Made by a program: the position numbers and the translations under genes
Notes under the pieces: model-generated
What the model was told of the DNA's origin: nothing
Seen by the model: the letters and a program-made list of their open reading frames with translations, nothing else
Database searches by the model: none
In this document: positions 4,262 through 25,476 of the stretch, piece by piece
How positions within the stretch are numbered: position 1 is the stretch's first letter
How the letters are laid out: each line of letters starts with the position of its first letter
Origin: a virus
Taxonomy: Duplodnaviria; Heunggongvirae; Uroviricota; Caudoviricetes
Length of the DNA stretch: 30,286 bases
Virus record (IMG/VR): IMGVR_UViG_2778261087_000001
Coordinates: 1-30,286 of that record
Direction: 5' to 3' (one strand)

Positions 4262-6031
4262 TTAAACAACAATTTTAAGGAAGTTTGAAGCATCCTTATA
4301 AATGGTGCCCGCGGGGGCGCCGTTTATCTCCTCAAGCGTTTTTACGTTCTTCAAAACCACCTTGCCATCTTCCAGAAATTCAATGCATGGTGCGTCGTTG
4401 TTCATTTTTATTTTCAACGAACCAACAGCACTATCTCCGTTTCCGCTTATCCATTCAAGTGACGCAATAGGAAGTGCATTGCCGTTGTGATCTGTCCCTT
4501 GTAGCAAGATCCTTCCAGTTCCTACCCCTGGTATTCTGATAGCTGCGCGACCCCCATCCTCTAAAACTACTTCCAAAATTTCTTTAGGATATTTTGTGTG
4601 CAGCCCTACACGCGACGTGCTCGACAGCCCACCACCACCAGGGACGACGGCAATACCTGGAATAAGCGATTCTGCAAAAAGCATCACTGAGTCTTTATGT
4701 GGATTGACTGCTGGGTTACCGTCATTAATGCCGCCCCCGATCGCAATCGAACCACCATAAGCCTGAATATTCTTACCTACAGCAAAAGAGCCATCTCCTG
4801 CCGCGCGAGTTTGATATCCAATGGCCGCCGCACCAATGCCATCACTTGCAACCCCGCCGGGGTCTGTAGTGTATCCCGGTCTGGCTTGCGTAAAATAACC
4901 TGTTGTAAAAGCCGCCCTTGAAAGCGCTTCCGTTTCTTCACAGAATGCGGCAGATTTTGCGCCAAGAGCAATGACATTTTTCCCAAATGCAAAAGAGCAG
5001 TACCCCTCAGCATTTGGTGAGGTAATATGATCTGGGTCCCCAGTGGCAGAACCAGCACCACCGGCAATAGATGCCACGCCGTACGTAACGCAGTCATGCC
5101 CGAAAGTTGTGGTGTATACCGCGAATGACGCACCGTTTCTGTTAAAAGATGCTGAGTAATCACCGATAAGAGCCGGGTTACACCATGAATTTCTCGGTGT
5201 AGGCAAGCCTCTCCAGAAGTTCTTTTCATCGTCAAGTGGTAGGAGATCGGCACCACCAATTCTCAGCCAACCTTTATCCTTATCAAAAGAAAAAGTGACG
5301 CCATCGGTTAAAGTAGATCCAACCGGTATACCGTAATTAACTTTTGTGCCAATCCTCTTAAGCCCGTCAGGTTGCGCCAGCAATAACAGAACATCTGCTG
5401 CACTACCGCTCTCAGGCAAGACCATAATGGACTCACCTGCATAATCATATGCATGGATCATATTTGCACGTTCTGCAGCAGGAGGGAGTTGCCGCGTAAA
5501 TGACTCTGGAACCCTTAACGTGTGCAGATAGTTGTTGTTACTAATCGTGTCTACATAATTTTTAGTGGCAGCATCCTGCGGGTCTCGTGGGTCGCGCAGG
5601 TTGCGAATGTAATTCCCCAGCGCGTCGTACCAGTTAGCGATGGTTGATGGCTTGCGCAGCGCCAAGGCAAACCAACTGCGAACCTGCTGGATCAGCATCG
5701 TCAGTTTATCGAATGCGTCTTCATGCACCTCAGCGAAGAACTTACCCTGGTTGCGCAGATCGGTATCCTGCGTAACCGGTAGCTCTCTTGATATAGAAAT
5801 CTGATAACCGTTAGCCAACGCCTTCGACAGAATTACATTGCCGCCGTTATACCCTCCCGCACCAGTGACTATGTAATCAGTATCAAGAATCAGCTCTGTG
5901 ATGTTCTCGTTCAGGTCAACAACCTGCACTACTAAATCAGATTTCTGGAAAATCCTGAAGGTATAAGGGAATGCCGTTGTAACACCGTTACCTGTGTATT
6001 CGTTGTGGTCAACTTCGGTTGAGACCGTCAT
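4262..6031 (-). CDS. tail fiber / tailspike protein with T7 gp17-like N-terminal adaptor domain
   Basis: 589 aa; N-terminus (YTGNGVTTAFPYTF...DLVVQVVDL...ITELILDTDY) resembles the conserved podovirus tail-fiber N-terminal domain; Gly/Ala-rich C-terminal part with lower GC at the 3' end; GGAG RBS. Confidence 0.7.
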   Translation of the reverse strand: MTVSTEVDHNEYTGNGVTTAFPYTFRIFQKSDLVVQVVDLNENITELILDTDYIVTGAGGYNGGNVILSKALANGYQISISRELPVTQDTDLRNQGKFFAEVHEDAFDKLTMLIQQVRSWFALALRKPSTIANWYDALGNYIRNLRDPRDPQDAATKNYVDTISNNNYLHTLRVPESFTRQLPPAAERANMIHAYDYAGESIMVLPESGSAADVLLLLAQPDGLKRIGTKVNYGIPVGSTLTDGVTFSFDKDKGWLRIGGADLLPLDDEKNFWRGLPTPRNSWCNPALIGDYSASFNRNGASFAVYTTTFGHDCVTYGVASIAGGAGSATGDPDHITSPNAEGYCSFAFGKNVIALGAKSAAFCEETEALSRAAFTTGYFTQARPGYTTDPGGVASDGIGAAAIGYQTRAAGDGSFAVGKNIQAYGGSIAIGGGINDGNPAVNPHKDSVMLFAESLIPGIAVVPGGGGLSSTSRVGLHTKYPKEILEVVLEDGGRAAIRIPGVGTGRILLQGTDHNGNALPIASLEWISGNGDSAVGSLKIKMNNDAPCIEFLEDGKVVLKNVKTLEEINGAPAGTIYKDASNFLKIVV

Positions 6032-6150: not shown

Positions 6151-6226
6151 TTCGCAAAACGTGCTGGATAGCAAACAAATTATTTGATACTGTATATTTA
6201 TACAGTTATTGCATGGAGAAGATAAG

Positions 6227-6484
6227 ATGCAGCAGTATCACTATCCACTGGAAGACGGATTTACCGAAAGGATTCACACGCCGGGAGGCGTCAGGTCACT
6301 GGTGGAGGGATCGCACTTGATGAAATTACTACGGGATCTCGATAAGGATGGATTTAATGTCGATGGCCCACTTGCCGAACTGACTGCACTGATTAACTAC
6401 GTCACCAGCTCACAGATGTCTATGCAGGATCTGCAAACACATCTCGACTATTGTGCCGAACAATTACGAAAACAAACCAGATAA
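6227..6484 (+). CDS. hypothetical small protein, paralog of the Bro-N protein C-terminal domain
   Basis: Track ORF starts at TTG 6209; ATG 6227 has GGAG 8 nt upstream. Shares the pattern H-x-P-G-GV...L-E-S-LM-LL...DG-V-G-AELT...QTH with residues about 160-228 of the downstream Bro-N protein. Confidence 0.5.
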   Translation: MQQYHYPLEDGFTERIHTPGGVRSLVEGSHLMKLLRDLDKDGFNVDGPLAELTALINYVTSSQMSMQDLQTHLDYCAEQLRKQTR

Positions 6485-6796
6485 GGTTTGCAATTACCAA
6501 CTGGAGTGCTTATATTTACCTTTGCGGTAAATTTACATCGCACTCCTCTTGTGCCATAGTAATCGGGCACTGGCAAAATCCAGTGCCGGGATTGGCGTCC
6601 CGGGTTACTACAGAGGCACATATGCCGCATAAGCGGTTTTTTTATGTGTAAAGCGCACCTATTCTATGGTGGGCTGTGTGGGGGCACCGAAAGGTGCGCC
6701 GGGTCCTTTGTAGCCGGTTACGCCAACCCTGTACAGTTCACCACCAACCGATTGGCGTCGGTAGTGGTGATTAACCTAACTACAAAGGTGATCACT

Positions 6797-7483
6797 ATGA
6801 CTGCTAACGTAACCCCATCTGTTTTTCATTTTGAATCAGAAGCAACCATTCGAGCCATTGTTATTGATGGAAATCCTTGGTTTGTTGCCAAAGACGTTAT
6901 TAAAGCTCTTCAACTGACAAACCCCACTATGTCAATAAAATCTCTTGATGATGATGAAAGGGCTAAATTTAACTTAGGCCGTCAAGGCGAAACCAATATT
7001 ATCAACGAGTCAGGCCTCTACACACTGATCCTCCGCTGCCGCGACGCAGTGACACCAGGCACTATCCCCTACCGCTTTCGTAAATGGGTTACAGGTGAGG
7101 TTCTTCCTCAGATCCGCCGCACCGGAAGTTACATTAAAAACTCGCTCCCGCAGGAAGAACGCATAAAGATGGTTGCCGACCAGGTAGCCAGCGCCACAGC
7201 ATCAGCAGTGATGCAGGCAATGAAGGTAGAGAACAAAACCTACAGCGCCCCACTGAAGCCCGGCTACCGCAGCCTGATTCATTCGCCGTCTGGTGTTCTT
7301 GGACTGACGGAGAACTCACTGCTGATGAATCTGCTGAACCAGTTACAGGACGACGGGCATGACGTATCGGGCGCGGCGGCGGAGCTGACCACCATGTTCT
7401 GCTACATCGTCGGTGTGAGCAAATGCCTGCGTGATATCCAGACGCACGCGGAGTACATCAGCGACAAAGCAGGATTCTTCTGA
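6797..7483 (+). CDS. Bro-N domain protein (antirepressor-like)
   Basis: From ATG 6797 (AAGGTG 6 nt upstream): VFHFE...IRAIVIDGNPWFVAKDVIKAL...SLDDDERAKF is a typical Bro-N signature; the track extension upstream to 6644 has no RBS and is rejected. Confidence 0.7.
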   Translation: MTANVTPSVFHFESEATIRAIVIDGNPWFVAKDVIKALQLTNPTMSIKSLDDDERAKFNLGRQGETNIINESGLYTLILRCRDAVTPGTIPYRFRKWVTGEVLPQIRRTGSYIKNSLPQEERIKMVADQVASATASAVMQAMKVENKTYSAPLKPGYRSLIHSPSGVLGLTENSLLMNLLNQLQDDGHDVSGAAAELTTMFCYIVGVSKCLRDIQTHAEYISDKAGFF

Positions 7484-7491
7484 CGGGCGGC

Positions 7492-7510
7492 GGCACAGGG
7501 ATGTGCCTTT
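7492..7510 (+). terminator. terminator-like hairpin after the Bro-N gene
   Basis: GGCACA-GGGA-TGTGCC followed by TTTAAAA; short T tract, so weak. Confidence 0.35.
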
Positions 7511-7547
7511 AAAATAATCATTGGCGATGTGATGTAGATTCGCGTAA

Positions 7548-7564
7548 TATTACCTTAAAGGTAA
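7548..7564 (+). promoter_or_regulatory. TATTACCTTAAAGGTAA motif, copy D, abutting the RBS
   Basis: Near-perfect palindrome TTACCTTAAAGGTAA immediately 5' of AAGGAGG (7564-7570) and ATG 7577. Confidence 0.45.
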
Positions 7565-7576
7565 AGGAGGCGCGAT

Positions 7577-7744
7577 ATGACAGCGTTGAAAAATCGTACT
7601 CAGCACAATGAACAAGCCAAGCAATGCTGGGATGTCATTGGAAAAGTTATGCTTGGTCGCGCAAGCAAAGAGCGCGACAAGGATATGGTTTACCAGACAG
7701 GAACATCTTTTAGCGACTTCAAGGCGGCATTTCGCTCCAAATAG
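7577..7744 (+). CDS. hypothetical small basic protein (55 aa)
   Basis: Below the 60-aa track cutoff; ATG with consensus RBS AAGGAGG 6 nt upstream; stop 20 nt before the next gene start, suggesting a two-gene operon. Confidence 0.5.
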   Translation: MTALKNRTQHNEQAKQCWDVIGKVMLGRASKERDKDMVYQTGTSFSDFKAAFRSK

Positions 7745-7764
7745 AAGCACATCAGGAGTTTTCC

Positions 7765-8208
7765 TTGAAGTTTAACATTAGAATATCTAATAGTTTTCTA
7801 CATGGGGAAAGCAACACCCCTTTCGCTGTAGACGGACCTTTCCTTACTGATGATGAAATAAAAATCATACAAAGGTTTTTAGAGGATGTTGCCAATGGAA
7901 GGGCGCTTGTTGGAAAAAACAAGCCCTCGTGGGTTGATGATAACCATGATAAAATTCCCGGCTCAGACAATTATGAGCAAGAGAATTATTGGCATTATCA
8001 TTGTGGGCCAACATGGTATCCAAACACATTTAAGAATTATACCATTAACTTAAATTTCAACCCTGGCGGAATGCATTCTAATGAATGCATTCATTATGCA
8101 AAAAATGATAATGAAATTGTCATTGTTGGATTTTCAAGAGAACACATACCTTTCCTTTCATCAGATGGAAACAACAATCCGCTTTTTAATGATGAAGAAG
8201 AAGAATAA
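7765..8208 (+). CDS. hypothetical protein, AT-rich moron (147 aa, acidic C-terminus)
   Basis: TTG start with AGGAG 6 nt upstream; markedly AT-rich codon usage with rare AGA/AGG/ATA codons, unlike flanking GC-rich phage genes; followed by a strong terminator. Confidence 0.5.
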   Translation: MKFNIRISNSFLHGESNTPFAVDGPFLTDDEIKIIQRFLEDVANGRALVGKNKPSWVDDNHDKIPGSDNYEQENYWHYHCGPTWYPNTFKNYTINLNFNPGGMHSNECIHYAKNDNEIVIVGFSREHIPFLSSDGNNNPLFNDEEEE

Positions 8209-8229
8209 GCCCGCGCTGCGGGCTTTTTT
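8209..8229 (+). terminator. rho-independent terminator
   Basis: GCCCGC-GCT-GCGGGC hairpin followed by TTTTTT directly after the 147-aa ORF stop. Confidence 0.65.
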
Positions 8230-8301
8230 GTGGACGAAACAAAAGTCAGTGCTACACTCATTGACGCCACATTGAGGTGGCTTATAGATGGAAATTTCAC
8301 A

Positions 8302-8463
8302 ATGAAAAAAGCATTTGCTGCACTGTTCGTTTTGTTGTCTCTGGTAGCTTCAACTCAGGCCTTTGCCGGCCGTTGTCAGCACGACAGCGATACTGCCGCT
8401 GACGGCTCCCGCTGCGGTGGGCGTTCTGCGGATTCCCGTCCGGGCGGCGGTGGCATTCGTTAA
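8302..8463 (+). CDS. small secreted Cys/Gly-rich peptide (53-aa precursor)
   Basis: From ATG 8302: MKKAFAALFVLLSLVASTQAFA is a classic signal peptide (AFA-G cleavage), then a 31-aa Gly/Arg-rich region with two Cys; weak RBS. Confidence 0.4.
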   Translation: MKKAFAALFVLLSLVASTQAFAGRCQHDSDTAADGSRCGGRSADSRPGGGGIR

Positions 8464-8486: not shown

Positions 8487-8498
8487 GTGACATGTCAC
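8487..8498. repeat. 12-bp perfect palindrome GTGACATGTCAC (copy 1 of 3)
   Basis: Exact palindrome, also at 26060-26071 and 28511-28522, each at a gene or module junction. Confidence 0.6.
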
Positions 8499-8791
8499 GC
8501 TCTTTTTCTGAATGATAGCCATTCGAAAAATGATGACATTCCACCGCAGACAATAGCAAATATGATCCCACCAAAGAAGAGAAGGCCAGCCTGCCACCAC
8601 TCCCACCGCCATACATCCACAGCGCCAACCATACCAACAATCGCTCCAACAAATGGAATATAGCTCACGATGAAAGCAATGGGGGCTGCAATTATCCAGT
8701 GCAATCCCCACCATGATTCAAGCCCAGCCATAATTGCTGCCAACTGAAAAAGACCAACGACGATATAAACAATGAATCCTATAGCTTGCAT
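8495..8791 (-). CDS. hypothetical integral membrane protein
   Basis: 98 aa, very hydrophobic with Trp-rich loops, about three transmembrane helices; AGGTGA RBS. Confidence 0.55.
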   Translation of the reverse strand: MQAIGFIVYIVVGLFQLAAIMAGLESWWGLHWIIAAPIAFIVSYIPFVGAIVGMVGAVDVWRWEWWQAGLLFFGGIIFAIVCGGMSSFFEWLSFRKRA

Positions 8792-8986: not shown

Positions 8987-11461
8987 TTATTGCGGAGTGA
9001 CATCCTGAGGTCGCCACCAGTATGTCTGGTTAAACTCTTTCTTCGAACGTTGCTCCATTTTACGCAAATAGCCTGGTGAAAAATACTCCTGCATCTGGTT
9101 AAAGATCATATGATCGAGAGCCGCCTTTAAGTACCAGAGATTCGCACCTGGCATCAAACCTTTCCCCAGCTTCACCAGATCACCACCAGTCTGCTCACTC
9201 TTCCCTTCCACAGCATTTAACGGTATGCCCTGAGCAATCTTCACTACGTCATCAACCAGACCAGCTACCGGGCCAAGCATCGACGCCAGCGCGCCGCTTC
9301 CGTACCTAGTGTGATCTGACAATAAAAAGTCACCGTAAAGGCCAAGACCACCACCTTTCAGTAGAGCACCAAGCCAGAATTTTGCGGCATCTTCTCCTGT
9401 CATATCTCGAGGATTACGACCAGACGCAAGGTCGTTAAGTTGCTGCGACAAAGCGCCAAGAATGGTCGTACTGGCAATAAACGTCGCAATATATGCCGCA
9501 CGCCCACCAGCAGACGGCATCCCCATAGCGCGTGACCAGTGACGCATAACCACCGAGATAGGGAACGATTTAAACAGGAAAACACTTCTCGTTAATTCAC
9601 CTTTCCATGTTCCACGCTGAATACCAGAACCGGTTATCAGTTGCTCACGTGCTCCCGGTGTAATAACAGCCATATCAACTTCTTCAGTTACAGCACCGAG
9701 CAGTTTACGCATTGCCTCAAATTTCACGCGTTCAGGCTCACCAATATGTTTAACTGCTGAATCAGGGATACGCATAATGCTTTCCGGTGTCAGCATCGTA
9801 TTATTACCGTTCCCCCAGTCCTCCTGTTGCGCCAGCTTCCATACGCTCCAGTCTGTGTCAGTAATCCCTTTGCTTTTCAGGATACGAAAATCAGAGTCAT
9901 CGAGGCTACGAAGGTCTGGTGTCCGTGACACTACTTCTCCCAGGCTTCCCATCATAGTTACGCCATAGGCGCGCTTGTGCGCATCTGACCATGCTGTAAG
10001 CCCACTGGCACGCATTACCGCAGTTGCCGCCCAACGAGACACAGACGGCCCCATATTATCCATCGCCCAGCGGTTAACGCTGCCAAGTAGAGATTCCATC
10101 GCCAGACCAGCTCGGCGCGCCCGCGCAAGCTCAGTACGGTTCGTTGGGTCCATAGCTTCAAGCTGGTTGCGGAATAACTGGTTCATTGGAAGGTTGGTAA
10201 CCTTCGCAGACAGATACATGGTTCCAAGATCAGAGAACGATGACAGCAACGCGGATCCGAGTCTGCTGGCAACCAGCCAGTTGCGGATATTGTCAGACCA
10301 TCGCGCGATGTGCGGATTCGCTACAGGCTGTGTCTTTCCGGAAATAAAGTTGTACAGATTCTCTGTGTTGTTCGCCAGCCGCTCGACTTTACCGGTTTTA
10401 CTCGGGTTAGCTGTTGCCGTTTCTGCCTTCACCTGATCAAGAAGAGAGCGGAAAACATGATCGGGGTTTGGGCCATATGTTTCCACCAATGCAATATCTT
10501 TACTGATACCTTCAAGGTGACCGACCATGATTTCCCATAGAGAGCGATCGCCATAAAGTTGCTGATATTGCAGATAGGAATCTGCATCTTTGAAATGTAT
10601 CTGTCGTGATGCATTACCACGGTTAGCACGTGCGCCGGAAATTCGCATTCCGGTATCAGTAAGCTTATTCAGCCCACCAGTAGCGATCGTGTTATAAGCC
10701 TCTCCAAGAAATGCAGACAACTCGGCATCGTTCATCAGTTGTCCATCGGCTCGGGTATAATATTTGCGATCCAGCTTACCTATAACATCGCTAACCCATT
10801 TATCTTTTGATACCGCCCCAACCTTTTCCATAGAATGATGTTGAGGGATCCCCCAGTTTTCGAGATAGCCAATGTCCCCACCAGCATCATTAAACCGGCG
10901 GCGCAGCAGCTCTGTAACTTCTCTCCACGCCTTAGCACCTTTTCTTGCTTTAGCATTGCCAGTATTTTGCCCCCGCATTTCATATATCAGGTCACGTACG
11001 CCCGCTTCATCTTCAAACAGACCAAAAAAGCGAGGATCAACTGCTTCGAATGCCTCCTGCAATTGACTCAATGCATAATCACGGGTGGCTTTTGTTCTGG
11101 ATTCAACAGAGAGGAAATTCGATTTACCGTCTGCATTAAAAGCAATAGTACGGTTAAGAGCGCCAAGTTTCCCATCAGCCCCTTGATAGCTATTGATAAA
11201 TTTATCCAATCTCTGACGTGCGGCTATAGTGAGGGCCACACGACGTTTCTTTAATGCCGCTTCTCGCTGTAATTCTTCAGATGCCAATTGTGCTGCACGA
11301 TACAACCGTTCTGATTCGGAAAGTTGTCGCCACGACATCGGGTCATCACGAGCAATGGAGCGCATATTTCGATAAATGCGGTCTTCAATGTTCTGTATTT
11401 CTCGCGCCGTTAACGTGCGCTGCGCCGCCTGCTGGACCGCTTGTATACATTCCTGTCTCAT
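8987..11461 (-). CDS. internal virion / ejection protein (large, 824 aa)
   Basis: Third of three consecutive very large proteins between the tail tube genes and the tail fiber, the position of T7 gp15/gp16-like core proteins; hydrophobic Gly-rich C-terminal segment. Confidence 0.6.
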   Translation of the reverse strand: MRQECIQAVQQAAQRTLTAREIQNIEDRIYRNMRSIARDDPMSWRQLSESERLYRAAQLASEELQREAALKKRRVALTIAARQRLDKFINSYQGADGKLGALNRTIAFNADGKSNFLSVESRTKATRDYALSQLQEAFEAVDPRFFGLFEDEAGVRDLIYEMRGQNTGNAKARKGAKAWREVTELLRRRFNDAGGDIGYLENWGIPQHHSMEKVGAVSKDKWVSDVIGKLDRKYYTRADGQLMNDAELSAFLGEAYNTIATGGLNKLTDTGMRISGARANRGNASRQIHFKDADSYLQYQQLYGDRSLWEIMVGHLEGISKDIALVETYGPNPDHVFRSLLDQVKAETATANPSKTGKVERLANNTENLYNFISGKTQPVANPHIARWSDNIRNWLVASRLGSALLSSFSDLGTMYLSAKVTNLPMNQLFRNQLEAMDPTNRTELARARRAGLAMESLLGSVNRWAMDNMGPSVSRWAATAVMRASGLTAWSDAHKRAYGVTMMGSLGEVVSRTPDLRSLDDSDFRILKSKGITDTDWSVWKLAQQEDWGNGNNTMLTPESIMRIPDSAVKHIGEPERVKFEAMRKLLGAVTEEVDMAVITPGAREQLITGSGIQRGTWKGELTRSVFLFKSFPISVVMRHWSRAMGMPSAGGRAAYIATFIASTTILGALSQQLNDLASGRNPRDMTGEDAAKFWLGALLKGGGLGLYGDFLLSDHTRYGSGALASMLGPVAGLVDDVVKIAQGIPLNAVEGKSEQTGGDLVKLGKGLMPGANLWYLKAALDHMIFNQMQEYFSPGYLRKMEQRSKKEFNQTYWWRPQDVTPQ

Positions 11462-11466
11462 TTAAT

Positions 11467-13269
11467 TTAACCTCTCAAGAAACACGCCACAGCAACATCA
11501 AACAGGCTGGAATCCTGTATTGCCTGCTCACTTTCCCTGTTCGCTTCATCCAGTACTTCACGCGCACTGCGCGATTGTGGATTACCATCATCATCCAGCA
11601 CGGTGATTATCATGTCAGGTGATTCAAGCAGCGAGTCTTCAGCTATGCGCAGATCAATATCTCCTGCCTGATCTGACATCATTTTTTGTTCTGCCTGTTG
11701 CAATATTTTATCAGGCTCAAAAGGAGCTACTTCGTCTGGCGTCCTGACCTCTGCTGTTTTATAGAATGAAACAGCCTGAGCATTAAGTTCACTTTCTGCC
11801 TGCTGTCTCCGAGCCAGTTCTGCTCGAGCTTCAAAAAACTGACCGCCAGGCTCGTGCGGTGCCAACGCGTTACGGGAAAATTCCAGGCGTTCTTGTGCCT
11901 GCCGGATTCGTTGATCAATATCGCGAAGTCTGGCCTGTTTATCTGATCGAGCACGAGACAAAGCTTTACCGCTACCGGTTGGCTCTTCTGCAAGAATTTG
12001 TGCACGCTGTTCAGTGAGATTTTCAATAATTCGTTGGCTATTAGCGATTTCAGACTGGTAAACCTGTCTATCTCCACGCGGCAAAAGATGCGCGGCCTGT
12101 TCTTCAAGCAACCGATTTTCTATAGCGCGCGCCGTTACTCCATCATCTACAGATGACAGAGCCTCATTAACTGCCTGAGACAGCAGACTCTTGCGCCCAG
12201 GAATTTCACTGAAAGATGCAGACTCAACAATGCTGGCAACGTCTACAGGTCTCCCCTGGCTAACATCAGACATAGCTTTTCGCAGAGCCTGAATGTGAGA
12301 ATTGCGCGAAAGCACGTTGATCGGCACGCCGGGCGCAATATCAATTTCAGCATGATGAGCGGCATTCGCCGCCAGTGCAGCATCGATATCAACTGGTGAA
12401 AAATTTGGTGCGTTTGTAGACTCGCCGCGAGAGTTAATAAATCTGCCGACACCACCAAACGCCACCCCAAGAACAGCATCAATAGCAATTGCCTGTCGAT
12501 CCAACACATCATACTGGTTAGCCATTTCGCTATAGCCACCATCACGAAGTGTTTTTGCAGTAAGCCCACGCTGTGCCATACCGAACGCAATATTTGTACC
12601 TGCGGCATAGGCAATATCTGGCGTTGCACGTACTGCTGTTGCTGCGGCGCGTCGCACTGAACTCTCACCCGTCCGCGCAAGCTGAGCCGCCACACCTTCC
12701 GCCAGCGCACCACCAGCACGTAACCCGAGGCTCATAGGGATCAGCGTTCCGGCACCAGCAGTAATGCCCTGCACTAATCCCGCTTCCTGCGCCGTCCTGA
12801 AATCAACACCCTGTGCTGTCAGCCGTTCAAACTCAGAAAAACCCTGTAGCGAAGTTACCGCCGCTGCACCTCCGACAGGACCACCGAGCGTTGTACCGAC
12901 AACAGCCTGCCCGCCCATATCGAACAACCCATAAAGAACCTGCCCAGCGGTTCCGGTTGTCGCGGCATCAGGCGTCAGCCGCTTAACCTGCTGCTCTGCT
13001 AGTTTTCTCTGCTCGGCAATGTATGAAACTGAAGTATCATTGAGCGAGGTGTTTTCGTTAACAAACTGAGCAATCGGGGATACGATTTTATCCATCCCTG
13101 CCCATAGCAACTGATCTGGCTTTGCCACCAGCCCGGAGTACAAACCAGACAATGCCGCTCCTACAGCATTGTCGAAAAAACCAACATCGCTGTTAAAGCC
13201 AGCTGGATTTGATGCTGCTTCGTCAAGCTGCTGATTCTGGTTTACTGGATTAAGGCCAAAGTAACTCAT
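11467..13269 (-). CDS. internal virion / ejection protein (600 aa)
   Basis: Gly/Ala-rich N-terminal half and charged coiled-coil C-terminal half; translationally coupled to flanking core genes. Confidence 0.55.
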   Translation of the reverse strand: MSYFGLNPVNQNQQLDEAASNPAGFNSDVGFFDNAVGAALSGLYSGLVAKPDQLLWAGMDKIVSPIAQFVNENTSLNDTSVSYIAEQRKLAEQQVKRLTPDAATTGTAGQVLYGLFDMGGQAVVGTTLGGPVGGAAAVTSLQGFSEFERLTAQGVDFRTAQEAGLVQGITAGAGTLIPMSLGLRAGGALAEGVAAQLARTGESSVRRAAATAVRATPDIAYAAGTNIAFGMAQRGLTAKTLRDGGYSEMANQYDVLDRQAIAIDAVLGVAFGGVGRFINSRGESTNAPNFSPVDIDAALAANAAHHAEIDIAPGVPINVLSRNSHIQALRKAMSDVSQGRPVDVASIVESASFSEIPGRKSLLSQAVNEALSSVDDGVTARAIENRLLEEQAAHLLPRGDRQVYQSEIANSQRIIENLTEQRAQILAEEPTGSGKALSRARSDKQARLRDIDQRIRQAQERLEFSRNALAPHEPGGQFFEARAELARRQQAESELNAQAVSFYKTAEVRTPDEVAPFEPDKILQQAEQKMMSDQAGDIDLRIAEDSLLESPDMIITVLDDDGNPQSRSAREVLDEANRESEQAIQDSSLFDVAVACFLRG

Positions 13270-15779
13270 TGCGGAATATCTCCGGAGAATCTCTGACGCT
13301 TCTGTGTCAGATTAAGAACAACGGGAGAACCATCATCTTTCAGCAGATAACCAGTACCAAGTTTCACCAGGTACTGACTATCGCCGTAACTTTGCAAACC
13401 ATACTGACCAGGCGGTGTTTTTATCCCAGAGCCGACAACTTGTTCATTCCAAGCCTGATTAACCTGCTTATCGAATTGCTCTGCAGACATTCCCCACGGC
13501 AAAAGGACATTCCCCATTCCGTTATAGTCATGCACGCCACCTGTAGCTACGTTAACAGCCTGTTTCCAGACATCATTGTCAATTTCGCCTGATACCACGC
13601 CTTTTTTCGCCATCACACCAGCGTAATAATCCTTTGCGATCTCGTATGCCATTGATGCCCCCTGAGCGTCACCAGCAAATGCATCCTTCACCATGTCAGA
13701 AAACTCAAGGCGAAGATCAGCATCTTTAGGCATCGGAATACCTTTCGCATCATCAGTACCTTTACGAGCCGCCGCGCCAGCAAGAATTGTCTGCGCAGCG
13801 GTTTCAGGAGACACGGAAACATCCGGATTAAACCAGTTTTTTTCTGCCAAAATACCACCAGGCTTATCCATCAGTATCCCGGCAACGGCAGCAGATGGAG
13901 CGTTGGCACTGATCTGCTGTAGTGCTGACATATACACCTGCCCACCACCAGTGCTCTGCCTGATGGTATCGAGATATGCTGCCTGTTGGGAAACGGGCGC
14001 ATCACGAAAGAAAACACCGATCTGATTGGCCTCGTCTTTGGAAAAGAACGTCAGTGGAGTGCCATATGACTTAGCAAGGTCACTGACCTGAGCGGCACGC
14101 AAGGCAACGCTCTGTCCAAAGTTATCCTTATTGCTCATGTCGATAGGCTTTGCCTGTCCGGAGGCAAGAGAGAACTGCACAGGATCCGACTGCCGCTGCT
14201 TTATCACCTGATTTGCAGCCGAAACAACGTTGTCATAAAGAGCTGCACGAGACGCATAACCCTCCCCTGTCTCACCAGTATCCGGACGTAATTGCTCAAC
14301 ATATGCGGTAATGCTGCTTGTCGGCATGTTGCGGAAAGAGCCTATATACTGTCCGGCGATCTGCGTATTTCTGAACTCGGTATATCGCAGGTTTCCTTCT
14401 CTGACGCCATAAGCTGCAATAAAATCAGCCTCACCAGGTGGATTAGGAAATTCAACGCCACGCATATACGCAGCCGTCGCATCGCGAACCTGGCTGTCAA
14501 TCATCGTTTTATATTCAGCCTGCTGCTGCCGACGCAGTTGATCCGCCTGTCGCATAAAACTTGCCTGCGCCTCAGGAGATGCCGCATCGAATGCTGCATT
14601 ACCGGTATAGCGTTTGGTGTTGGTTGGAATTGTTGATAAACCAAGTGCTGCACTGACACCAGCAGTTAACTGCTGATCACTGTATGGCTGGCTACCGTTC
14701 TCATGATGGATAATGGCTGCACAAAGCGCCTTCAGGGTATCAGGATTAGATGCATCGAGAGGATCATCAGCAGAAACGCCAAGTTGTTCGCACACTGCTT
14801 TGATATACGACATAGTATCATTTTTATCAGTAGGCGGTGCCCAGCGATTAATTATCTCGCTGACGGTATCAATACCCTGCCGCTGATACGACATCAGGTT
14901 TCGCCCTAATGCACGAATCCCGTGTTCAGGTGTTTCGAATTTAGCAAATCGACCATCATCACCGGTCTGGCCTACCCACGGATTAGTTTTGCTGTATTCG
15001 AGATTTCCTGGGTTATTGTTGCGTATGCCACGGGCACGCTCGGAAGAGTCACTATCTGCTACAGCACGGCGAGCTCCAGCAGCAGTATCACTTAACTCGC
15101 CATTACTTTGGATGAATGCGGTCGCATTGTTTGCCGACCACTGGGACAATGCGGCATCAGCAACCTTCTCTTTAAACTCGATTTTCTTGGCCTGGATTTG
15201 CTCGTCGCTCCAGCCATGCGCAATGCCGTAATCCTCAATTTGCTGGAAAGTTTGCTTATTAGCCAATACGTATGCGGCGTTGTCGCCATACAATGCTGCG
15301 GCATTTTTACCATTGTTCAGCAGCGTCGCCTGAAACTGGCCTTCTTCGTAGGCATTTATTTGCCCTATCTCGTGCCGCCCGGCCTGCGTAGTGAACTGAA
15401 TGCGCTGCTGCTGCGCCTGCTGCATGAAAGCATTACGAGCCTGTTCATCCGGCAGCGACATAGCCAGTTGCTCGACCTGGGCATCAAACTGCTGCGTATA
15501 CTCCTGACCTTTTCCAATAGCATTTTTCCCTTTCAGGTTAAGCAAACCTGTTTCAGGGTTATTCAGCAGATCGCTGCTTATCTGGCTTAAGCTAAGAGAA
15601 GCATCCTGAGCCATAGCAACATTCGCACGCTGTTTTGCCTGCGCAATAATACCTGCATATTGCTCTGCAACATCGCCAAGTACATCACCGACATTTGGTG
15701 TCTGAAACGATGAGAATCCCTGCGTCGAAATCCCTCTGCTCTGAACCTGACGGCCCGATGTTGTTGGTACAACTGGCAT
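13266..15779 (-). CDS. internal virion / ejection protein (837 aa)
   Basis: Large Gln/Ala-rich protein in the core-protein block; 4-nt overlap with the next gene. Confidence 0.55.
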   Translation of the reverse strand: MPVVPTTSGRQVQSRGISTQGFSSFQTPNVGDVLGDVAEQYAGIIAQAKQRANVAMAQDASLSLSQISSDLLNNPETGLLNLKGKNAIGKGQEYTQQFDAQVEQLAMSLPDEQARNAFMQQAQQQRIQFTTQAGRHEIGQINAYEEGQFQATLLNNGKNAAALYGDNAAYVLANKQTFQQIEDYGIAHGWSDEQIQAKKIEFKEKVADAALSQWSANNATAFIQSNGELSDTAAGARRAVADSDSSERARGIRNNNPGNLEYSKTNPWVGQTGDDGRFAKFETPEHGIRALGRNLMSYQRQGIDTVSEIINRWAPPTDKNDTMSYIKAVCEQLGVSADDPLDASNPDTLKALCAAIIHHENGSQPYSDQQLTAGVSAALGLSTIPTNTKRYTGNAAFDAASPEAQASFMRQADQLRRQQQAEYKTMIDSQVRDATAAYMRGVEFPNPPGEADFIAAYGVREGNLRYTEFRNTQIAGQYIGSFRNMPTSSITAYVEQLRPDTGETGEGYASRAALYDNVVSAANQVIKQRQSDPVQFSLASGQAKPIDMSNKDNFGQSVALRAAQVSDLAKSYGTPLTFFSKDEANQIGVFFRDAPVSQQAAYLDTIRQSTGGGQVYMSALQQISANAPSAAVAGILMDKPGGILAEKNWFNPDVSVSPETAAQTILAGAAARKGTDDAKGIPMPKDADLRLEFSDMVKDAFAGDAQGASMAYEIAKDYYAGVMAKKGVVSGEIDNDVWKQAVNVATGGVHDYNGMGNVLLPWGMSAEQFDKQVNQAWNEQVVGSGIKTPPGQYGLQSYGDSQYLVKLGTGYLLKDDGSPVVLNLTQKRQRFSGDIPQ

Positions 15780-15791
15780 CTTATTATCCCC

Positions 15792-16331
15792 TTATCGACC
15801 GGTTGGAGTGCCAACAGCAGCAGAAATCGGCGCAGCCTTCTGAGAGAATGGGCTCCACGTTCCTCCGCCCATCTGGTATGCACCGTATGCTTTTAGTGGT
15901 GCCGTTAACAAAGTGCTGGTCATCGATGATTTAGCAGCCGACTGAGCAGCATCCCCCTGTGCCTGAGCATTCATTCCCTGAACCTGATACCCATATGCCT
16001 CACGCTGAGCATTATTCACTGTCGTTAACGCATCAAGAGTGCCGAACTGAGCATTATCCGCAAAAACGTCAAGAGCTGTTCCGCTACTTAATTCCGCACC
16101 GGTAGCCCCCATAGTGGCCGCCGCAGTACCTGAGCGTTGACGCATTTCACGACGACGCTGATCCGCTTCAATATTCCCACGATTGATTGAATCCTGTGCC
16201 TGAGCTTCAGCAATTTCAGCATTCCGATCAGCTATGGCTGACTGGTATTTTGCCTGCTTGCTCTGGCTGTACATTGACGCGGCTGTGGATGCCACTGTGA
16301 CGGCAACCAAAGCGATGGCTGGGTTACACAT
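15792..16331 (-). CDS. internal virion protein with N-terminal membrane anchor (T7 gp14-like position)
   Basis: 179 aa; N-terminal hydrophobic helix, Ala/Gln-rich body; sits between the gp13-position and large core genes. Confidence 0.5.
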   Translation of the reverse strand: MCNPAIALVAVTVASTAASMYSQSKQAKYQSAIADRNAEIAEAQAQDSINRGNIEADQRRREMRQRSGTAAATMGATGAELSSGTALDVFADNAQFGTLDALTTVNNAQREAYGYQVQGMNAQAQGDAAQSAAKSSMTSTLLTAPLKAYGAYQMGGGTWSPFSQKAAPISAAVGTPTGR

Positions 16332-16795
16332 TATTTTCTCTCCATGTGAAATCTGTGGAAATTAAGACCAAGAGCACCATAAGGCGCGGCTTCTTCAAGC
16401 CTGAATCCAAGCCAGTGCAGCCATGCTTTGGCAACATGGTTTCGCTCGTCGACGTAGTTTTCCAGGCGCGGATAAACTGCCAGCATCTGCTGCAATACAG
16501 GGCGGCAGTGGCGCAGAAATGTCTTCTGATATTTTTCAATACGGCTGGTTCCGACCAGCCAGGGCGTACCATTGCCACCGATCATTGACGCCGGAGATAC
16601 GCCAAACATGGTTACCAGTTCTCCGTTCGCAAATCCTGACCAGGCCATAGTCGCAGTACGCAGACCAACGCGCAGCGCATCTTCGGTAGTCATCAGCGAT
16701 ACCGCATACAGTTCGTCAATATCAGCCTGACGAACATCCGGCAAAATCATCTGAAGATGCTCTTCGGTAGCGGGAACAATTTGAACATCGATCAT
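16331..16795 (-). CDS. virion assembly / internal protein (T7 gp13-like position)
   Basis: 154 aa; ATGA overlap with the upstream tail tubular B-like gene; assignment is by position. Confidence 0.45.
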   Translation of the reverse strand: MIDVQIVPATEEHLQMILPDVRQADIDELYAVSLMTTEDALRVGLRTATMAWSGFANGELVTMFGVSPASMIGGNGTPWLVGTSRIEKYQKTFLRHCRPVLQQMLAVYPRLENYVDERNHVAKAWLHWLGFRLEEAAPYGALGLNFHRFHMERK

Positions 16796-19266
16796 CAGAA
16801 TCCCCCAACAGTAAGGCGAGGAATAACGGCAAGAACAGACAGCGGCAACGGGTCAAGCTGACGGATTTTTACACGCCCGTTTTTGCCCCAGTTACTGTCC
16901 AGTTTCACTTCTACTTTTCCGGTAGCATCATCAACAGGATCATCGTAGAACTCGAATTCACGCTGTGGATATTCGTACCATTTACCGCCGGGCGTAGTCG
17001 CCCAGATGCCGCGACTGGCATTCACAACCAGAGTAACGGACGGGATCACCTGTTTTTTGTCCAGCAGCGTTTCCTGTCCGTTAATGTTGATATCCAGTGT
17101 TTCGAATTCAGCAGTTATTGGCAGGCCGATGTGCACAACAGCCCCCGGTGATTCCAGCGTGACGGCACCTCCGGAAACCACTTTTTGTGGTTCCACGTTC
17201 GCATCAGAGAGGATGTTTACGGTCTGGCCTTCAAGATGAGACAAGCCGCCAAATGTCCGGCGCGCCATCTGCCAGTTCGTGGTGGCCACATTCCTGAGGG
17301 ATGGCGGGACGTTCCTGTTAGCACGAACCACTACTGCGGTATTGCTGGTTACAGAAATAATGTCGCAACGTAATTCTTTTGACACTTCATAGCCAGTATC
17401 AGGAACAGCTCCGGTATAAGGGAACTGTAGTTGCGCACCAACATCACTACTGGTGAAGTACGCACCACCAGAAACACTGATTGTATATTCCGCGCGGTAA
17501 TCCCATTCGCCAGAACCACCAGTGATGGTCATCGTTCTGTCAGACGTGTTTCTTCCATCATAGCTAAGGCCAGAATCAACAAAGAAAGCATCTTCATCGC
17601 TGGTAAATAAACGGCTGGACAGTCGCTCGATGTATCTCACTGTTTGCCCGTTAACGGTTCGGTTAACGACGAAATACACCGCATCTTCATTTCCTTCGCT
17701 GATACTGCATGTGCTTTCATATTTTCCGGTACTGGATTGTGGTGCCCATGCAAAAACCTGCTGATCACGCAAATAGGTCATCACCAGTAATTTACCGTCA
17801 TCACGAATGCAGAAGGCGCTGGAGTAAGGGACAATAGAGAAGCACCAGTCAACAATGCTGTGCTTCTGAAAAAGATGATTGGCAAGGATGGTCAGGTCGT
17901 TCCCCTGATAGCCGTCAACATCGAATGAGTAGGCCAGATCACGGACAACGCTGCCTTTCTCCTGGACGAACAGAGCAATATTCGCCACAGCAATTGGTGG
18001 GACGTTGCTTGAGCCATTTGATCCCTGAGAGCTGAATGCAAATGATGATGGGGTTAACACTTTGTTCTGGTCGCCGGTGATGACGTACTCACCTCCGGAA
18101 GTCAGCGCCACCAGAGAACCAACATCAATCAGGTGACGGATCTCATTAACCTGACGCCCGGCATAGGTGTAGATAATTCTGTCGTCATCCTGCGTAGGAT
18201 TGCTTTTGCCAAAATCCTTATAATCCCCGGTACGGCTGGCCCAGATAGTCTGAGGGAACGCAGTCGATGCGGCGAAGTAAAGACGTTGTTGATAATAAAC
18301 AACAGTGCCAGGATAACCATTAACACTGTTCCAGGCATATTTAGCCCATTTATAGCTGGCATTATCCTCGCCAACGACCTGCGAAGGGATATAGGAAATC
18401 ACCTCGGCAGTTGCAGTAGTTCCATTTGCAGCAGTGATACGGGCAATGCCAAAACCACTGTGCAGATATTCCCACTCAATGCCAGTATCATCATCACCGG
18501 ATCCGCCCCAGCCATCCCATGATGTGCCTTCTGTATGCGAAGGGCGCAAAGTGCCTGTTTTGCCTGCTGTAACGGCGCGATAGTAGTTACTGTCTGCACG
18601 GCGAATATCGCCAATCGACGTACTCTTACTGGTTTCCCATACCGGCACAGAATCCACTGCAGGCTGTTCCAGATAGAACAATTTGCCTACCTGCTCCGCG
18701 CCAAAAATAGAGGCGCTTGCCGTTAACGTAATTGTCCCGGTGCTGGCGCTGGCATAAACCGTCACTGACTCATCAATATTGATATCTTCAAATGGCCCGT
18801 TCTTCGTTACCACATCAACCAGTTGCCAGTTGTCATGCGCATAGCGGCGCAGCTCTTTCGGCGGGTATGCCGGGTGAACCAGCGTAAGCACGTCGGCGCT
18901 TTGCGTGAATTTAATTCGGAACAGATCGGCTTCAGTATATGGCGTGGCAATTTCATAAATAACATTGCTGCTGTTCAGCACCAACGCACCATCTTTGATA
19001 ACGCGCATGTACTGGTGTCCGAACTCCAGAGCATAAGTCTGAGCCGTCGAGAACTGGAACGGGATCAGGCGGCATTTCCGATTTGGGTATTTGGCGACAC
19101 CGACAAAACGCGTACCAGGTCGATTCTCAACGCCGCCATACTGCCGCACGATAAAGTTATCGCACTTGCGCAATGCTACCTGGTACTTCGCCATGTCAAT
19201 ACGCCCGTACAACGACGGTCCAATCTCACCACCGGCAAAGCTGGGCTGGATCCAACTGATAGCCAT
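16795..19266 (-). CDS. tail tubular protein B-like (tail hub/nozzle)
   Basis: 823 aa, comparable in size and position to T7 gp12, directly after the gp11-like gene. Confidence 0.6.
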   Translation of the reverse strand: MAISWIQPSFAGGEIGPSLYGRIDMAKYQVALRKCDNFIVRQYGGVENRPGTRFVGVAKYPNRKCRLIPFQFSTAQTYALEFGHQYMRVIKDGALVLNSSNVIYEIATPYTEADLFRIKFTQSADVLTLVHPAYPPKELRRYAHDNWQLVDVVTKNGPFEDINIDESVTVYASASTGTITLTASASIFGAEQVGKLFYLEQPAVDSVPVWETSKSTSIGDIRRADSNYYRAVTAGKTGTLRPSHTEGTSWDGWGGSGDDDTGIEWEYLHSGFGIARITAANGTTATAEVISYIPSQVVGEDNASYKWAKYAWNSVNGYPGTVVYYQQRLYFAASTAFPQTIWASRTGDYKDFGKSNPTQDDDRIIYTYAGRQVNEIRHLIDVGSLVALTSGGEYVITGDQNKVLTPSSFAFSSQGSNGSSNVPPIAVANIALFVQEKGSVVRDLAYSFDVDGYQGNDLTILANHLFQKHSIVDWCFSIVPYSSAFCIRDDGKLLVMTYLRDQQVFAWAPQSSTGKYESTCSISEGNEDAVYFVVNRTVNGQTVRYIERLSSRLFTSDEDAFFVDSGLSYDGRNTSDRTMTITGGSGEWDYRAEYTISVSGGAYFTSSDVGAQLQFPYTGAVPDTGYEVSKELRCDIISVTSNTAVVVRANRNVPPSLRNVATTNWQMARRTFGGLSHLEGQTVNILSDANVEPQKVVSGGAVTLESPGAVVHIGLPITAEFETLDININGQETLLDKKQVIPSVTLVVNASRGIWATTPGGKWYEYPQREFEFYDDPVDDATGKVEVKLDSNWGKNGRVKIRQLDPLPLSVLAVIPRLTVGGF

Positions 19267-21079: not shown

Positions 21080-22072
21080 TTACACCACACGGGCTTCTGT
21101 TTCCAGAAGCGCATCAGTTTCACGGATTGGTACACCACGGAATGAAGTCCACCACTCGCCTTCTGTCTCTTTTACGCTGATCGCCAGAGATGTTTTCTCC
21201 AGAGATTGCAGATCAAGAGCCTGGCCTACAGTGCGGTTCATGTAGAACACCGGGCGACCCATTCCACGGTTTGGAATGCGATGCAGTGCTTTAACCATCA
21301 ACTTCGCAATATTTGCGGCAGAGGAAGGTTCTGAAAGATTGCTGACATCGATGTTTGCAATGCGAACAACATAACGCCAGTCACGCAGAGCAAGTCCGTT
21401 GTCCCATTTGTAATGGGTGCGATAGCCTTCGTACTTGCCGCCATTAGCATCTTCCAGTGTCACCTGGCCTTTATCTTCCATCTGGATGCCAGCCTTCTGC
21501 CCTTTCGGGAAGATGCCATGCACGGTGTTTTCGCCCCACACCACTAACCAGATTGAGGTGTTATCTGTACCCGTGCCACCAGCATCAATGATGTTCTGAG
21601 CATTACCCGCAGACAGGCTGGAATAGCGGGAGGACAGTCCCATAAACTGCTGAGGGTTAACGCTGGAATCACCATAAAACAGCGTCTGCGCCATCTGCTG
21701 ATTCATCGCTTCAATAAATGCGCGGTCTTCAGACAGGCGGAATTCAGCGGAATTGCCGTTCAGATCAGCCAGTGATTTATCGACTTCAGCATAGGTTTCC
21801 AGCATGCCAACGGAATCGGTTACCTGCACTGTGGTTGATTTGCTTGGCTGTACGCCATAGTTCAGCAAACGCCAGGTAGCTGAAGGTAAACCAGAACGAA
21901 TGGTGGTTCGGTGTCCGGTAGGAAGGTTCCCTTCGACAAAAGGCATATCCTGAAGGATCGGGTTAGTTTGACCGAGAAGCTCGATAATCTTATCGACTTT
22001 CCCGTTTGGATCGACGCGCTTACCCCAGTCAGCCAGCGTTAGCGCAGTTAAGCCTTTAACAGCCATTGTCAT
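21080..22072 (-). CDS. major capsid protein
   Basis: 330 aa, strong RBS (AGAGG), follows the acidic scaffold-like gene and portal; size and position typical of podovirus major capsid proteins. Confidence 0.75.
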   Translation of the reverse strand: MTMAVKGLTALTLADWGKRVDPNGKVDKIIELLGQTNPILQDMPFVEGNLPTGHRTTIRSGLPSATWRLLNYGVQPSKSTTVQVTDSVGMLETYAEVDKSLADLNGNSAEFRLSEDRAFIEAMNQQMAQTLFYGDSSVNPQQFMGLSSRYSSLSAGNAQNIIDAGGTGTDNTSIWLVVWGENTVHGIFPKGQKAGIQMEDKGQVTLEDANGGKYEGYRTHYKWDNGLALRDWRYVVRIANIDVSNLSEPSSAANIAKLMVKALHRIPNRGMGRPVFYMNRTVGQALDLQSLEKTSLAISVKETEGEWWTSFRGVPIRETDALLETEARVV

Positions 22073-22782: not shown

Positions 22783-23075
22783 TCCTGTTCACTGGCCTCT
22801 TTGGCCATCTTCAAATACTGTTCAGGGCAATGCGCCATAACGCGCTGAAACAGTTCCAGCGCCAGATTGCGTTGCCCCTCATTAAATGCCATTGCCATAG
22901 CGTCCATCGGTGAGATAGCGGAAAACACACGGCCTTTCTCCAGCACCGACCAGACAACGCGACGCCCCTGTTCACTGCTCATGACAAAGCGAATGTCATC
23001 AATTTCACGCTGCGCCATGTCACGTTGCTTACGGGCGTTTTCTTCTTTCAGTTGATCGTCTTCGTAATCTGTCAT
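22779..23075 (-). CDS. hypothetical protein (98 aa)
   Basis: Charged helical ORF, ATGA-type overlaps with the portal and scaffold genes. Confidence 0.45.
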   Translation of the reverse strand: MTDYEDDQLKEENARKQRDMAQREIDDIRFVMSSEQGRRVVWSVLEKGRVFSAISPMDAMAMAFNEGQRNLALELFQRVMAHCPEQYLKMAKEASEQE

Positions 23076-25399: not shown

Positions 25400-25476
25400 G
25401 TGGCATTAGCTCAGTCGGACAGAGCAACCGCCTTCTAAGCGGTTGGTCGCAGGTTCGAATCCTGCATGCCACGCCA
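25400..25476 (+). tRNA. tRNA-Arg (anticodon TCT)
   Basis: 77 nt; 7-bp acceptor stem GTGGCAT/ATGCCAC, D arm GCTC...GAGC, anticodon stem ACCGC/GCGGT with loop CTTCTAA, T arm GCAGG-TTCGAAT-CCTGC, discriminator G, CCA end; acceptor stem differs from host argU as recalled. Confidence 0.85.

Follow-up and report, generated by a model that had tools for sequence, protein, structure and literature searches.

Escherichia coli encodes the type II toxin–antitoxin (TA) system DinJ-YafQ, in which YafQ is a ribosome-dependent mRNA endonuclease and DinJ has a ribbon-helix-helix DNA-binding domain. In a second described pair, PaaA2-ParE2 of an E. coli O157 prophage, the antitoxin PaaA2 is a helical protein of ~60 amino acids (aa) without a DNA-binding domain. 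In P22-like phages, immunity and exclusion genes lie next to the tailspike gene, in a region of the immI/sieA type. YafQ cleaves mRNA with residues H50, H63, and H87, aided by D67 and F91 (PMC4652777). It is one of 13 Pfam monodomain toxin families of the BECR group listed in a 2025 survey, the others being RelE, YoeB, HigB, HigB-like, MqsR, YafO, YhaV, BrnT, gp49, DUF4258, ParE-like, and ParE (PMC11980606). Here, we describe a two-gene cassette, orfA-orfB, located in a 30,286-nt stretch of DNA from a Caudoviricetes virus (IMG/VR record IMGVR_UViG_2778261087_000001, positions 1 to 30,286; “the window” below refers to this whole stretch), and we compare the cassette with these systems.

We judge it rather likely, from sequence comparison and structural modeling, that orfA-orfB is a type II-style TA module belonging to a new, unnamed family. 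The original prediction for this locus was of an uncharacterized accessory module of the TA, abortive-infection, or exclusion type. That description is supported, and most of the evidence favors TA: (i) the protein encoded by orfB is modeled with a RelE/ParE fold; (ii) the two partners are conserved together across genomic contexts; and (iii) the cassette occupies a variable slot that elsewhere holds a YafO pair.

The orfA and orfB genes

The proposed antitoxin gene, orfA (positions 7577–7744, plus strand), encodes a basic protein of 55 aa, with an isoelectric point (pI) of 9.80 and 11 lysine and arginine residues versus six aspartate and glutamate residues. Its ATG start codon lies 6 nt downstream of a consensus ribosome-binding site (RBS), AAGGAGG, at 7564–7570. 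The proposed endoribonuclease toxin gene, orfB (7765–8208, plus strand), encodes a protein of 147 aa with a pI of 4.84 and a C-terminal NDEEEE sequence; the pI is 5.36 when this acidic tail is left out. The start codon of orfB is TTG, positioned 20 nt downstream of the orfA stop codon and 6 nt downstream of an AGGAG RBS (7754–7758). The original prediction had described a basic 55-aa protein with a consensus RBS and, 20 nt farther on, a 147-aa protein with a TTG start and an acidic tail, and the sequence bears it out on each point. It was also right that orfB is AT-rich and uses rare codons: the gene has a GC content of 35.4% (0.354, with 0.30 at third codon positions, versus 0.491 for the whole window), and AGA, AGG, and ATA together make up 8 of its 148 codons versus 16 of the 825 codons of a neighboring gene for an 824-aa protein. 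The surroundings had been called GC-rich, which they are not, at ~49% GC. The prophage also carries a gene for tRNA-Arg with a TCT anticodon (25400–25476, plus strand), between the portal and terminase genes. This tRNA reads AGA, and AGA is among the rare codons for which orfB is enriched.

Comparison with cassettes of 75–85% identity gives ratios of nonsynonymous to synonymous substitution rates (dN/dS) of 0.13–0.16 for orfA and 0.04 for orfB. Because both genes have homologues in many genera and show low dN/dS, we take both open reading frames (ORFs) to be genuine genes under purifying selection. The orfA protein is diverging faster than the orfB protein, with proportions of nonsynonymous differences (pN) of 0.34–0.43 versus 0.26–0.29. 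Antitoxins usually change faster than their toxins at the protein level.

Predicted fold and conserved residues of orfB

The orfB protein belongs to PHROG 5954, a family with no assigned function, and every public copy is labeled “hypothetical protein.” A protein identical to the 147-aa product (cluster representative P0001) is found on 947 contigs. Clustered at 90% identity, the family has 36 clusters; at 50% identity, and with E-values up to 1e-3, it has 119 representatives. No match to orfB was found in Pfam (E-values up to 1) or NCBIfam, and the PADLOC-DB 2.0 models of defense systems matched neither orfA nor orfB at E-values up to 10. In the Pfam search, orfB fell outside all 13 BECR monodomain toxin families listed above.

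The case for a toxin fold comes from structural modeling. An AlphaFold2 model of orfB, built on 31 sequences, has a mean predicted local distance difference test score (pLDDT) of 90.3 and matches the description of the RelE/ParE fold, i.e., a compact alpha/beta structure that starts with a strand and has two helices and an antiparallel sheet. When the model was compared with known structures using Foldseek, YafQ, RelE, and YoeB ranked first, with template modeling (TM) scores of 0.5–0.65 (normalized to target length) and no significant E-value; a Foldseek search of viral structures (BFVD) found nothing. According to the model, orfB has the RelE/ParE (BECR) toxin fold.

Three histidines, H77, H79, and H127, are invariant in an alignment of 95 diverse orfB relatives, and G50, N52, K53, S55, Y78, Y111, and F130 are nearly so. 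The conserved residues form four motifs: GKNKPSW, WHYHCG, IHY, and IVGxSxxHxPF. In the model, H77 and H79 lie on one central strand, with H127 and F130 positioned just after the last strand. At the level of secondary structure, these positions match those of the YafQ residues, with H77, H79, H127, and F130 of orfB recalling the H50, H63, H87, and F91 site of YafQ. The His-x-x-Phe sequence that follows the last strand is similarly spaced in the two proteins, and the distance from a conserved tyrosine to H127 and F130 is almost as in YafQ. The modeled arrangement suggests a histidine-based ribonuclease (RNase) active site in orfB. The two proteins nevertheless differ in several respects. They share no detectable sequence similarity, orfB does not match the YafQ family (PF15738), and a profile comparison was not significant. 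In addition, orfB exceeds YafQ in length by 55 residues, has two insertions (approximately residues 57–74 and 81–104), and is acidic, without the basic ribosome-binding patches of YafQ.

A second toxin family invites comparison: in sister prophages, such as TL-2011b, and in numerous genomes of E. coli, the exact position of orfA-orfB is filled by a YafO-family pair (PF13957). Gene order in YafN-YafO is the same as in orfA-orfB, and the order of motifs in YafO and orfB is similar: G-x-x-K/D, aromatic-H-x-H, I/V-x-Y, and a hydrophobic strand followed by histidine. Membership of orfB in the YafO family was considered and rejected, with no Pfam YafO match for orfB or for 95 relatives. A BLASTP comparison of orfB with the YafO protein of TL-2011b gave an E-value of 1.3.

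Some distant orfB relatives, from AT-rich organisms, are longer. P0101 and P0122 have an N-terminal CxxC...CxC extension resembling a zinc ribbon, and P0132, P0138, P0141, and P0155 have a helical C-terminal extension of ~100 aa. These sequences suggest that multidomain versions of the family exist.

A conserved upstream partner

At 106 loci encoding orfB homologues, the homologue is preceded by an ORF on the same strand, with the end of the ORF lying no more than a few bases from the homologue's start, and at 102 of these the upstream ORF falls into one of three related partner groups. The first group consists of orfA-like proteins of 55–65 aa, together with Klebsiella proteins of 99–121 aa that have an orfA-like C-terminus. 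In the second are plasmid proteins of 62 aa, as well as proteins of 160–211 aa, from Pasteurellaceae, that carry the same module C-terminally. The third consists of proteins of 69–71 aa from Aeromonas and relatives. All three share a C-terminal motif, hLLGR/SR, followed after ~10 residues by G/S-x-S-F-x-D-F-x-x-A; the first and second groups align with each other with an hhalign E-value of 0.0057. Long partners (160–211 aa) occur in Pasteurellaceae (L014–L026, L077, L083, and L088) and in Kingella/Neisseria (L028 and L029). Their hydrophobic N-terminus resembles a membrane anchor or signal peptide, and only the last ~50 residues are like the short partners.

The pair shows a feature of type II modules, in that two small, adjacent, co-oriented genes, separated by 20 nt in the window, are inherited together (102 of 106 loci). 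The partner itself matches phrog_8607, which has no assigned function; neither orfA nor 10 partner proteins have a meaningful match in Pfam, NCBIfam, or PADLOC, and on this sequence evidence orfA belongs to no known antitoxin family. An AlphaFold model of orfA (pLDDT 72) has two helices, at residues 2–36 and 45–53, joined by a loop. In being small and helical, without a detectable DNA-binding domain, modeled orfA is like PaaA2 and unlike DinJ. The likeness to PaaA2-ParE2 does not extend to the rest of the system: ParE2 is not a histidine-based RNase, unlike the proposed orfB, and PaaA2-ParE2 has a third, regulator gene, paaR2, whereas no third conserved gene accompanies orfA-orfB.

Expression signals and a proposed mechanism

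A weak start codon for orfB is conserved among related cassettes. In enterobacterial cassettes of 57–99% identity, orfB starts with TTG in eight of nine cases and with GTG in the other. The orfA homologues in the same cassettes keep ATG, with the consensus RBS read only in the window copy. Because the RBS and ATG of orfA are strong and the start of orfB is weak, antitoxin should exceed toxin. The stop codon of orfA abuts the orfB TTG in several cassettes, and the two genes abut or overlap in relatives; therefore, translational coupling is suggested.

Three elements precede orfA on the plus strand. First, a hairpin (GGCACA-ggga-TGTGCC at 7492–7507, extending to 7510 with the TTT that follows) lies downstream of the antirepressor gene, in the conserved flank; L052, a cassette of 75% identity, keeps this hairpin with compensatory changes (GGCGCA...TGCGCC). 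Second, a candidate weak sigma-70 promoter, TTGGCG-18 nt-TAATAT (7521–7550), can be read by eye with 8 of 12 matches, although it scored under the threshold of a promoter scan. As an alternative, the pair may be transcribed by read-through from the upstream antirepressor unit. Third, an inverted repeat, TTACCTT-a-AAGGTAA (7550–7564), lies between the candidate −10 element and the orfA RBS. Inverted repeats of differing sequence are found at the matching position in other cassettes (TTACCTCAAAGGTAA in L052, ATCACCAATGGTGAT in L056, and ATCACCAGTGGTGAT in L060), and this repeat may act as an operator or, alternatively, as an RNA stem close to the RBS. The predicted RNA fold around the orfA RBS was not significant (z = −1.59), and nothing within the cassette was assigned to an RNA family in Rfam; matches to the Trp and Phe leaders at the terminator downstream of orfB were below threshold.

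We infer RNase activity and toxicity for orfB, neutralization by orfA, and a biological role along the following lines. The antitoxin gene (orfA) would come first and the toxin gene (orfB) second, as in the type II layout and in DinJ-YafQ. The orfB protein would be a BECR-fold enzyme, most likely cutting RNA by means of its histidine-based site. The active site would be blocked by orfA, which probably docks on orfB with the conserved “SF-DF” helix at its C-terminus. Strong translation of orfA from its consensus RBS and ATG would be matched with synthesis of orfB kept low by the conserved TTG or GTG start. The toxin would then be freed when the element is lost or when host expression is shut off in the course of an infection. 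The pair probably stabilizes whatever carries it, prophage or small plasmid, and may cause infections by other phages to abort.

Distribution and the exchangeable slot

Relatives of orfB are found in Klebsiella, Erwinia, Pectobacterium, Haemophilus, Aeromonas, and Neisseria; very small plasmids carry them as well. The setting of the pair varies from one lineage to the next. In Klebsiella, it lies in the nin region of lambdoid prophages; in Pectobacterium, in the equivalent Bro-N slot of a prophage; and in Haemophilus prophages, it is flanked by tape-measure and baseplate genes that share its strand. A Pasteurellaceae element has the pair adjoining a gene for a polyvalent protein, and in Erwinia the two genes stand by themselves as an islet, with accA on one side and mtnA on the other. 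The pair is also carried by 37 plasmids, many of them only 2.7–4.6 kb in length. Three plasmids of 2.7–3.0 kb were examined: two hold a replication-initiator-like gene and the pair only, and the third, pPB07309, holds the pair and two unnamed genes. Because the pair travels alone and can be the sole cargo of minimal replicons, it behaves like an addiction or defense module and unlike a virion or lysis gene. Literature searches by accession, name, and keyword for the plasmids carrying the pair and for the slot found nothing.

Within E. coli, the cassette occupies a site at which contents are swapped. In an alignment of the window with the related prophages TL-2011b and EC.W1-9, similarity ends at 7508–7518 and resumes at ~8197–8200. 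The left boundary is just downstream of the hairpin at 7492–7507, and the right boundary is just upstream of an intrinsic terminator hairpin, AAGCCCGCGCTGCGGGCTT, found by a terminator scan at 8207–8225 on the plus strand, with a T run to 8231. Two conserved hairpins therefore bracket the swapped segment in the window as well as in L002 and L003. The original prediction assigned the terminator to the cassette. The hairpin and T run do exist, but they belong to the conserved flank and form the right edge of the slot; since similarity resumes before the hairpin, the terminator is a common scaffold of all slot variants. The right hairpin of TL-2011b has its central part in inverted orientation (GCCCGCAGCGCGGGC versus GCCCGCGCTGCGGGC).

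The slot flanks are present in 536 of 5,426 complete E. coli genomes, and orfA-orfB is present in only 76, so the cassette is not an invariant core component of related prophages, in keeping with its predicted accessory nature. In TL-2011b, the slot holds a gene for a 59-aa protein and a Pfam YafO_toxin protein (26.3 bits, with a cut-off of 25), and in EC.W1-9 a gene for a 108-aa protein and a DUF2335 membrane protein. A spread sample of the remaining genomes yielded YafO-family pairs, DUF4760 proteins, and DUF2335 proteins.

Evidence against a toxin–antitoxin module

Several observations weigh against classification of the pair as a TA module. First, no sequence profile ties orfB to a known toxin family: 95 aligned relatives have no Pfam match at E-values up to 0.1; profile searches of Protein Data Bank sequences with three alignments (A1, A2, and A4) found nothing relevant; and hhalign comparisons of orfB-family alignments A1 and A2 with a YafO alignment (A3) gave probabilities of only 0.4% and 0.9%. 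Second, the charges are the wrong way round for a pair of the RelE type, in which the usual pattern is the opposite of an acidic orfB (pI 4.84) and a basic orfA (pI 9.80); across the orfB family, the median pI is 6.8, with a range of 4.8–10.7. The surface of orfB is not basic, and helical ribosome-binding patches of the YafQ type are not evident. Given the acidity of orfB and the want of obvious basic helices in it, ribosome dependence is doubtful; we would give it appreciably less than an even chance. Third, no DNA-binding fold was detected in orfA or in the longer partners, either by profile scans or in the orfA model. Since orfA has no recognizable DNA-binding fold, classical autoregulation of the module is unsupported. 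Fourth, the sole published phenotype of the locus, reduced serum resistance, is not a TA phenotype.

The published orf10 deletion and alternative explanations

The phenotype was described by Li et al. in 2020 for “orf10” of phage phiv142-3, annotated as a 52-aa protein (QGF19616.1) (PMC7724020). This ORF (L001 4502–4660) equals positions 7895–8053 of the window (plus strand), inside orfB in another frame, and the 60-nt recombination arms used by Li et al. map to 7835–7894 and 8054–8113. In related cassettes, stop codons break the orf10 frame, whereas the orfB frame stays open; we therefore reject orf10 as a real gene. The phiv142-3 record leaves the real gene, for a 146-aa protein, unannotated. 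Since orf10 is out of frame within orfB, the serum-resistance phenotype belongs to orfB or its region. The segment deleted corresponds to orfB residues 44–97, including the GKNKPSW and WHYHCG motifs, and its loss removes two of the three invariant histidines while leaving orfA intact. The mutant was viable and grew normally in lysogeny broth but grew more poorly in chicken serum, with survival in 50% serum at ~60% of the wild-type level; transcripts of kps were ~2-fold lower, loads in blood and heart were 7–8% of those for the wild type, and serum induced the orf10 region 2^4.12-fold (PMC7724020). A viable strain with the orfB core deleted is the outcome expected if orfB is a toxin.

These data invite two readings that give weight to virulence. 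In the bolder of the two, orfB is a serum-induced RelE-fold RNase that reprograms host transcripts, e.g., those for capsule, and thereby aids survival of pathogenic E. coli in the bloodstream, with orfA a new type of helical inhibitor lacking a DNA-binding domain and the hairpin-bounded slot a dedicated site at which Uetakevirus prophages exchange TA and defense cassettes. We regard this full combination as unlikely. The other reading, which we consider distinctly unlikely, is that orfB, with its RelE fold, works as an RNase or as a regulator that binds RNA and is a non-toxic lysogenic-conversion factor, again with capsule transcripts and serum survival as examples of its targets, and that orfA is an inhibitor, chaperone, or co-factor. 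The serum, kps, and organ-load defects of the mutant, the induction in serum (PMC7724020), and an acidic surface unlike that of ribosome-binding toxins would all fit such a regulator. However, the pair is also found on plasmids of 2.7–3 kb, in Haemophilus prophages, and in the Erwinia islet, where a role in capsule or serum survival makes no sense; the conserved weak start and tight pairing fit a dangerous product held in check; and the published complementation used a fragment of undefined composition, with the wrong reading frame assumed.

It is improbable, in our view, that orfB belongs to a ParE-like or other non-nuclease branch of the fold, e.g., as a protein that poisons gyrase, and that orfA is the matching antitoxin. 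The best structural matches are RNases (RelE, YafQ, YoeB, and HigB), and the three invariant histidines with the C-terminal His-x-x-Phe resemble the catalytic set of YafQ; ParE proteins are not known to have such residues. More improbable still is a reversal of roles, with the small basic orfA as toxin and the larger acidic orfB as antitoxin. The charge pattern and gene order would suit a toxin-first module such as HigBA, yet the enzyme-like fold, the invariant histidines, and the conserved weak start codon are all on the side of orfB. Moreover, deleting the core of orfB with orfA kept gave a healthy strain, which argues against orfB being an antidote.

We give the least credence to the suggestion that orfA and orfB are unrelated, uncoupled neighboring morons or non-functional remnants: neither protein has an annotated function, but the two co-occur at 102 of 106 loci in unrelated contexts, abut or overlap in a manner suggestive of translational coupling, and are both under purifying selection. 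Two further candidates were rejected outright, a virion or lysis protein (searches found no such homology for either protein, and the pair is present on 2.7-kb plasmids) and a superinfection-exclusion membrane protein (transmembrane segments are lacking).

The surrounding prophage

The window is an E. coli prophage of the genus Uetakevirus (epsilon15/phiV10-like). Across positions 7400–8400, it is 98.3% identical to phage HEMP4 and 96.7% identical to phiv142-3. Genes matched to PHROG families on the minus strand encode the terminase (26146–27621), the portal/adaptor (23072–24751), the major head protein (21080–22072), tail and virion proteins (8987–19266), and the tailspike (4262–6031). The cassette had been predicted to lie inside a minus-strand structural operon; the virion genes are indeed all on the minus strand, but the pair is part of a plus-strand accessory island (6209–8463) between the tailspike gene and the remaining virion genes.

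The island contains, in order, C4-type RNA elements, a Bro-N antirepressor gene, orfA-orfB, and a gene for a 52-aa membrane-anchored protein. Rfam matches on the plus strand comprise c4-a1b1 (6554–6606; 44.1 bits, just below the gathering score), isrK (6567–6643; 74.7 bits), and C4 antisense RNA (6662–6748; 78.5 bits). Judged by sequence matches, this stretch (6554–6748) upstream of the antirepressor gene is a P1-type immI control unit. Because the island holds C4 RNA and an antirepressor, the cassette sits in an immI-like accessory region, outside the morphogenesis operon proper. A mechanical ORF call for the antirepressor (279 aa, 6644–7483) overlaps the C4 RNA, so the true start is probably farther downstream; phiv142-3 is annotated with 218 aa. 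The arrangement is like the immI/sieA region of P22 in placing an antirepressor island between virion and tailspike genes. It differs in that the control element is a P1-type C4 antisense RNA and the cassette proteins are unrelated to SieA.

The 52-aa protein (8305–8463, plus strand) has an N-terminus resembling a signal anchor and a tail rich in glycine, arginine, and cysteine, and matches phrog_14503, annotated as “membrane associated protein” in the moron category; this gene is kept beside every slot variant. On the minus strand, 8495–8791 encodes a 98-aa membrane protein (phrog_3075) with a weak holin-like Pfam match (E-value of 0.027). TL-2011b has an inverted second copy of the antirepressor 3' end (L002 5237–5439, equivalent to 7304–7506 of the window), which is part of a second ant gene adjoining a gene for an Arc-like repressor. 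This second 3' end indicates that the immI region has been duplicated or rearranged in TL-2011b.

Implications

As a probable TA system, the orfA-orfB pair would add a new family to a kind already known, and it is not surprising in principle. The orfB family is widespread yet wholly unannotated. If our proposal is correct, the pair would add a family missed by profile-based surveys of TA and defense systems, and would provide a case of an acidic RelE-fold toxin for which ribosome dependence is in question. The published virulence phenotype attributed to orf10 of phiv142-3 would be reassigned to the correct gene and frame. Lastly, the hairpin-bounded exchange slot of epsilon15-like prophages could be mined for further modules.

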